Notes under the pieces: generated by a model
The model's database searches: none
The model's input: the letters and a program-made list of their open reading frames with translations, nothing else
Told to the model about the DNA's origin: nothing
In this document: positions 23,509 to 23,584 of the stretch, piece by piece
Position numbering within the stretch: position 1 is the stretch's first letter
How the letters are laid out: each line of letters begins with the position of its first letter
Virus record (IMG/VR): IMGVR_UViG_2529292910_000010
Coordinates: 1 to 41,736 of that record
Reading direction: 5' to 3' (one strand)
Length of the DNA: 41,736 bases
DNA from: a virus
Lineage: Duplodnaviria; Heunggongvirae; Uroviricota; Caudoviricetes
Program-made: the position numbers and the translations under genes

Positions 23509-23584
23509 GAACCGCCTTCGGGGACCCGAACTCTGCGCAACCAGCTTCGAAGGCTGGCGCTCTTTCCTGATGAGCTAATGGCGG
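23509..23584 (-). tRNA. tRNA-like gene, probable tRNA-Arg (anticodon UCG) with atypical T-arm
   Basis: reverse complement CCGCCATTAGCTCATCAGGAAAGAGCGCCAGCCTTCGAAGCTGGTTGCGCAGAGTTCGGGTCCCCGAAGGCGG; good D-arm and anticodon arm, but T-stem pairing is poor and there is no encoded CCA. Confidence 0.5.

Follow-up and report, generated by a model that had tools for sequence, protein, structure and literature searches.

In lambdoid and Stx prophages of E. coli, three tRNA genes form the ileZ-argN-argO cassette, situated between Q and the late/lysis genes. The argN gene of this cassette was first named in phage 933W. An intact argN, whose anticodon UCG reads CGA and CGG, would supplement the decoding of rare E. 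coli Arg codons. Cassette order and spacing were the same in phage 2851, phiSTEC1575-Stx2k, Sakai Sp4 (ileZ1-argN1-argO1), AR_0013, and FORC_069. Damaged versions have been described: stx2i prophages carry 'tRNA-pseudo-tRNA-Arg' versions of the ileZ-argN-argO cluster, as documented in a 2026 paper (PMC13641118). Both the gene and the kind of decay considered here are already known. Searches of the literature on ileZ, argN, argO, and the 933W tRNA genes returned nothing specific; they yielded generic references to 'two tRNA-Arg and one tRNA-Met/Ile' besides the one report of pseudo-tRNA variants, and no expression data on argN were found in them.

The window analyzed here was a 41,736-nt stretch of DNA from a Caudoviricetes virus (IMG/VR record IMGVR_UViG_2529292910_000010, positions 1 to 41,736). 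ARAGORN placed three tRNAs on its minus strand: Arg(tct) at 23418–23494, Arg(tcg) at 23509–23585, and Met(cat) at 23592–23667. Scores against the Rfam tRNA model were 53.4 bits for Arg(UCU), 38.1 bits for Arg(UCG), and 72.5 bits for tRNA(CAU), with a gathering score of 29. Judged by synteny and sequence identity, the middle tRNA occupies the argN position in an ileZ-argN-argO cassette: tRNA-CAU, tRNA-Arg-UCG, and tRNA-Arg-UCU lay within ~250 nt, and identity to named members was found. The 321-nt tRNA cluster was ~92% identical to the cassette directly upstream of stx2 in phage 2851 and phiSTEC1575-Stx2k. Of 5,426 complete E. coli genomes, 1,408 matched a 106-nt argN segment, and these hold ~2,700 copies of the cassette. 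Over its 106 nt the segment shared 97.2% identity with argN1 of prophage Sp4 in O157:H7 Sakai.

The best large-scale match was an stx-negative lambdoid prophage in FORC_069 and O104:H4-type strains. Window positions 24920–17297 and the FORC_069 prophage had 7.6 kb in common with only about six differing sites. One of these, position 23534 (G50A in the argN T-stem), was the sole difference within the tRNA cluster; the UCA tail of argN and both defects of argO (described below) were common to the FORC_069/O104:H4-type lineage. RefSeq labels the argN copy that differs by this one base as tRNA-Arg, not as a pseudogene.

The Q antiterminator gene (26435–26797, minus strand) was followed toward the tRNA region by a two-gene insert (25251–26411, plus strand) encoding a 237 aa protein with a DUF6731 match and a 147 aa protein without a Pfam match. 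In FORC_069 this position held other genes (a hypothetical protein and a nucleoid-associated protein), and similarity to FORC_069 broke down at about 24923–24983 of the window. The insert looks like a swapped moron cassette. A gene for an AraC-type HTH protein (23696–24409, minus strand) preceded the tRNAs. Next after the tRNAs, past the terminator-like hairpin, came an STnc100 sRNA (23152–23342, minus strand; 140 bits), followed by a DUF1737/SASA/DUF6645 esterase gene (20968–22929, minus strand), and no stx gene was found downstream. In some related loci (L028, L049, L122) AgvB or AsxR anti-sRNAs lay beside STnc100; the Rfam scan of the window gave no AgvB or AsxR match at the gathering threshold. 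The same scan placed a C4 antisense RNA (75 bits) adjoining an isrK Hfq-binding RNA (62 bits) at 32285–32470 on the minus strand.

Just upstream of ileZ was a sigma-70-like promoter match (TTGATT-17-TATTAT, 23678–23706, minus strand). This was a consensus match only, and the number of such promoter-like matches (one) compared with 1.3 expected by chance. An intrinsic-terminator-like hairpin with a T-run (23386–23403, minus strand) lay just downstream of argO. Terminator-like elements numbered five in the region versus 0.9 expected, and the hairpin 3' of argO was conserved in the Sakai and AR_0013 relatives. A plus-strand ORF (23368–23613, 81 aa, GTG start) running antisense across argO and argN was not taken as a gene.

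A reading made from the sequence alone (hereafter the sequence-only reading) had set both flanking tRNAs apart from the middle one as free of its T-arm defects, but the downstream neighbor proved damaged as well. The ileZ-type tRNA(CAU) (23592–23667, minus strand; 72.5 bits) was intact, encoded its CCA, is named tRNA-Ile or ileZ1 in RefSeq relatives, and was the sole pristine tRNA of the trio. The argO-type tRNA-Arg(UCU) (23418–23494, minus strand; ARAGORN drawing) kept A58 and an encoded CCA but had two mismatches, G53·A61 (C61A) and G6·G67 (C67G), and scored 53.4 bits versus 70.1 bits for the common argO allele. Several weak Rfam matches in this region were rejected. A Plastid-ycf2 5'UTR match on the plus strand (23594–23667), antisense to ileZ, was an artefact at 30–36 bits, below the gathering score of 65.7; the Plastid-ycf2 model evidently resembles an antisense tRNA and matched at the equivalent place in 13 loci. 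Weak AaHKsRNA20 and YrlA matches were tRNA look-alikes, also below their gathering scores.

The window argN allele (tRNA-Arg UCG, tRNA positions 1–73) occupied 23511–23584 on the minus strand. Its match to RF00005 passed the gathering threshold (38.1 versus 29 bits), with E = 1.5e-6 in a 501-nt search and 1.2e-4 in the whole window. The 5' part of the RNA reads CCGCCAU UA GCUC AUCAGGAAA GAGC G CCAGC CUUCGAA GCUGG UUGCG, and the 3' part reads CAGAG UUCGGGU CCCCG AAGGCGG U UCA. Canonical acceptor, D, and anticodon arms had been claimed for it. The D-arm (4 bp, GCUC/GAGC, loop AUCAGGAAA, with G18G19) and the anticodon arm (5 bp, CCAGC/GCUGG, 7-nt loop CUUCGAA, U33, anticodon UCG at 23548–23550, minus strand) were indeed intact, but the acceptor stem had six of seven pairs, with an A6·A67 mismatch between 23579 and A67 (U67A; 23517, minus strand). 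ARAGORN drew eight acceptor positions by including A(-1):U73. These two bases, A(-1) at 23585 and the discriminator U73 at 23511, can pair and were present in all argN alleles; their pairing could shift RNase P site choice.

The T-arm (CAGAG UUCGGGU CCCCG, 23519–23535, minus strand) was degenerate, as first noticed. Three of five T-stem pairs (C49-G65, G51-C63, G53-C61) can form, none of them adjacent, and two A·C mismatches, A50·C64 and A52·C62, were marked by cmscan; a 5-bp T-stem was absent although G53-C61 was present. The earlier description of this region as one that does not pair was therefore slightly overstated, yet ViennaRNA gave the T-stem a pair probability of ~0. In the T-loop (UUCGGGU), U54, U55, C56, and G57 were kept and position 58 was G in place of A, as claimed. 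Following U73, the 3' trailer was UCA (23508–23510, minus strand) where allele alignments show CCA in intact alleles (C74U), bearing out the reported lack of an encoded CCA; both neighbors encode it, and CCA is normally encoded in E. coli tRNA genes. Among standard-length argN alleles the 3' tails were TCCA in 80, TTCA in three, and TCTA in one (80/84 encode CCA).

A high-scoring canonical cloverleaf from an alternative alignment, the outcome that had been named as speaking against a degenerate tRNA, was not found. Infernal and ARAGORN used the same T-arm register, and ARAGORN scoring called Arg(tcg) with three isolated T-stem pairs. The identity elements of E. coli ArgRS are A20, C35, G36/U36, and an A/G73 discriminator. 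In the window argN, C35 and G36 were present, as was A at the D-loop position assigned to 20, and the discriminator was U73 in all argN alleles.

With anchors in the 3' terminal part of ileZ and at the beginning of argO (5'), 119 loci were pulled from IMG/VR; with reference loci and the window added and 60 nt of flank required on each side, the analysis set comprised 119 clusters. The argN slot was the most variable part of the cassette across these loci. The ileZ gene formed six alleles with a nucleotide diversity of 0.003 and was identical in 113 of the 119 loci. The argO gene formed 22 alleles (nucleotide diversity 0.021, truncated copies excluded), and the argN middle segment formed 58 alleles (nucleotide diversity 0.082, 35 loci with indel-broken alleles excluded). 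At the argN slot ARAGORN called Arg(tcg) in 79 loci, Lys(ttt) in two, Arg(tct) in one, and an aberrant tRNA in one; in the other 36 of the 119 it called nothing, owing to deletions or a replaced anticodon arm. Stem mismatches in argN numbered zero in 46 loci, one in four, two in 24, three in nine, and six or more in 36. The window argN fell in the three-mismatch group, and the counts of six or more mismatches arose through indels.

Intact argN alleles, carried by other phages, scored 52.7–58.4 bits against the Rfam tRNA model with zero stem mismatches and had the form CGGGG UUCGAGU/UUCAAGU CCCCG/CCUCG AUGGCGG U CCA. A widespread damaged allele, here called class II (CGGAG UUCGGGU CCCCG AAGGCGG), scored 42.9–43.4 bits. 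Two CAGAG alleles scored lower, that of locus L038 at 37.5 bits and that of the window at 38.1 bits. A further degenerate class scored 26.4 bits, below threshold, and alleles with a replaced or deleted anticodon arm had no match to the Rfam tRNA model. The argN of phage 2851 was mildly damaged (A51·C63), and that of the Stx2k phage had G53·A61. Among species-representative genomes there were five loci, all with argN allele types already seen.

The commonest allele at the argN slot in the sample (~29 loci) had its anticodon arm swapped for unrelated sequence (…GAAGAGCAGACGACACGATAACAGGGTTGTTGGTGC…), and a run of 5 to 13 G replaced the 5' strand of its T-stem. Examples of the anticodon-arm replacement were L109, L110, L088, and L128, within the related loci L003–L121. 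The window argO allele was a singleton among the 119 sampled loci, with an identical allele in the FORC_069/O104:H4-type prophage. In L126 (E. albertii NBRC 107761) and four IMG/VR loci argO was truncated just past its anticodon loop, where unrelated sequence took over (…CTTCTAAGCAGCTGTGGTTGCACTCC…); the fusion point is a putative recurrent rearrangement breakpoint inside argO.

Relative to intact argN, the window allele had five structure-breaking substitutions: G50A, G52A, A58G, U67A, and C74U. It corresponded to class II (G52A, A58G, U67A) plus C74U and a private G50A, the last also found once on another background, in L038 (IMG/VR). Among 36 standard-length argN alleles no compensatory changes were found, and pairing was no better than in column shuffles. 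Variation in argN appears not to have been filtered for structure, which agrees with relaxed constraint. What marks a tRNA pseudogene was found in the window copy, namely derived, non-compensated, structure-breaking substitutions compared with intact homologues, together with relaxed constraint.

Predicted folding separated the allele classes. With ViennaRNA the cloverleaf was the minimum free energy (MFE) structure for intact argN alleles, with T-stem pair probabilities of 0.5–0.98. For class II the cloverleaf was less stable than the MFE structure by 7.0 kcal/mol, and for the window allele by 13.2 kcal/mol; nearest-neighbor energies of this kind leave out tertiary contacts, base modifications, and any A+·C wobble pairs. 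The predicted MFE structure of the window allele instead contained a shifted hairpin pairing U54-U55-C56-G57-G58 with C63-C64-G65-A66-A67 around the loop GUCC, which A58G and U67A together make possible. The fold z-score of the whole window argN sequence was only -1.56.

Taken together, the window argN is quite likely a decaying, poorly functional or non-functional copy of a known prophage tRNA, kept by its linkage to ileZ and argO. The suggestion of a pseudo-tRNA, or decaying member of the cluster, was thus supported by mutational polarity, diversity, folding, and literature alike. G52A, A58G, and U67A would have been inherited from class II, C74U is shared with the O104:H4-type prophages, and G50A would be a private gain. 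The summed damage leaves three isolated G-C pairs in the T-stem, removes the tertiary pair between T54 and A58, and introduces the A·A mismatch in the acceptor stem. In tRNAs A58 pairs with T54, shaping the T-loop. The argN RNA is probably still transcribed with its neighbors, whether transcription starts at the promoter-like site ahead of ileZ or reads through from the late region. The RNA would be expected to fold mainly into a non-cloverleaf form with the shifted hairpin UUCGG-GUCC-CCGAA, and may misfold in the same way in vivo. An RNA folded in this way should be processed, supplied with CCA, charged, and bound by EF-Tu only poorly. On its own the UCA tail is not decisive, since a CCA-less precursor can still mature, as do some T4 tRNAs; the combined defects argue for a loss of function, which is suggested here by sequence comparison and modeled folding.

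A second explanation holds that the window argN is a functional, structurally tolerant tRNA-Arg(UCG) that decodes CGA and CGG for phage late genes. The mismatches and G58 would then be tolerated with help from tertiary contacts and modifications, and the host CCA-adding enzyme would supply the CCA. Its score above the Rfam gathering threshold, its call by ARAGORN, and the label tRNA-Arg given by PGAP to a near-identical copy are consistent with this explanation, as are the intact anticodon and D arms, C35, G36, and the A placed at D-loop position 20. Perfectly paired alleles can have G58 too (L028, 54.0 bits). The class II allele is widespread, and it persists at 95–99% identity in hundreds of complete E. 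coli genomes. Demand also has to be considered. Rare codons in the window ORFs occurred at 8.4 (AUA), 6.9 (AGA), 5.5 (AGG), 5.6 (CGA), and 11.9 (CGG) per 1000. CGA and CGG were common and enriched in these ORFs, so a demand for tRNA-Arg(UCG) exists, which counts against decay.

Against tolerance, the allele scored 15–20 bits below intact alleles, its cloverleaf lay far above the MFE, and the T-stem was absent from the prediction. EF-Tu contacts pairs 49-65 to 51-63, and the mismatched 50-64 is one of them. No compensatory changes accompany the damage, and U73 is unlike the A73 or G73 of E. coli tRNA-Arg. The slot was destroyed in 36 of 119 loci while ileZ was invariant, showing that its loss is evidently tolerated. 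A functional, tolerant tRNA is accordingly considered unlikely. The E. coli host reads CGA by tRNA-Arg ICG and CGG by tRNA-Arg CCG, and stx2A contains 15 AUA and eight AGA/AGG codons and only five CGA/CGG codons. Selection to keep argN is plausibly weaker than selection to keep ileZ and argO, which fits the ranking of their diversities.

It is highly improbable that class II argN was remodeled into a non-decoding, tRNA-like RNA in which the shifted 5-bp hairpin replaces the T-arm and stacks on the acceptor helix, with G52A and G50A disfavoring the cloverleaf. Such an RNA might punctuate the processing of its neighbors ileZ and argO, decoy a tRNA-targeting enzyme, or act as a regulator. The shifted hairpin was the MFE structure of both class II and window alleles, its 14-nt segment was invariant in eight class II alleles, G50A arose on two backgrounds (the window and L038), and the halves of the acceptor stem were conserved even where the anticodon arm was replaced. 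The hairpin, however, takes only two substitutions to make, and its invariance is not significant: with ~7 class II substitutions spread over 76 sites, a given 14 sites would all be spared with a probability of ~0.24 by our estimate. Other lineages wrecked the slot in unrelated ways, which speaks against a common alternative function, and neither covariation nor the fold z-score favored a selected structure. An error of sequencing or assembly at 23534, with ordinary class II (CGGAG) as the true allele, is a highly improbable source of the private G50A: the window segment had no exact match in 5,426 complete E. coli genomes (best 99.1%) and G50A is the sole tRNA-cluster difference from FORC_069, but the same change occurred independently in L038 on another background, a handful of further single-base differences lie dispersed along the 7.6 kb common with FORC_069 as natural divergence predicts, and an allele without G50A would still score 43.4 bits with a cloverleaf 7 kcal/mol above the MFE, leaving the conclusion unchanged.

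The state of argN was also compared with the presence of stx, using loci whose sequence extended 1.3 kb or more downstream and seeking stx within 2.5 kb. Of 42 loci whose standard-length argN alleles lay outside classes II and V, 11 had stx downstream of the cassette. Of 50 loci in which argN was class II, class V, or indel-broken, none did (Fisher p = 8e-5, shared ancestry among loci uncorrected). Some Stx-phage alleles, those of phage 2851 and Stx2k, are themselves mildly damaged. Should this link hold once phylogeny is taken into account, the integrity of argN might distinguish younger or active Stx phages from cryptic prophages that are resident. Overall, a decayed argN matters little on its own. 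Selection within the cassette appears very unequal, with ileZ nearly invariant, argO intermediate, and argN often broken, and a plain "tRNA-Arg" annotation of prophage tRNA-Arg(UCG) copies can hide damaged alleles.

The closest known relative of the window argN is the argN of the Stx/lambdoid cassette (Sakai Sp4 argN1, phage 2851), with which it shares position, order, spacing, anticodon, D-arm, and anticodon arm. From the FORC_069/O104:H4-type copies it differs by one base. From intact argN, which has a perfect T-arm and A58, it differs by G50A on top of the class II defects and by the loss of CCA. The stx2i pseudo-tRNA variants (PMC13641118) are a close parallel, as there too one member of the array gained structure-breaking mutations while its neighbors stayed intact. 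Compared with phage pseudo-tRNAs in general, the window argN is still found by tRNA finders, and the copies in its close relatives are not labeled as pseudogenes.

Two other systems resemble the window argN in single features. RNase BN together with the CCA-adding enzyme matures some T4 tRNAs that have no encoded CCA. Like these, the window argN is without a genomic CCA, and its maturation would need 3' trimming and the CCA-adding enzyme. In T4, however, the absence of CCA is the conserved native state of functional tRNAs, whereas in the window argN it is a derived C-to-U change, which three of 84 standard-length alleles have, and it comes together with other defects. The 'armless' tRNAs of metazoan mitochondria likewise have weak or absent T-stem pairing and a non-canonical T-loop. 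These tRNAs co-evolved with dedicated EF-Tu and ribosome partners, an adaptation that E. coli does not have, and, unlike them, the window argN has sister alleles that are canonical.
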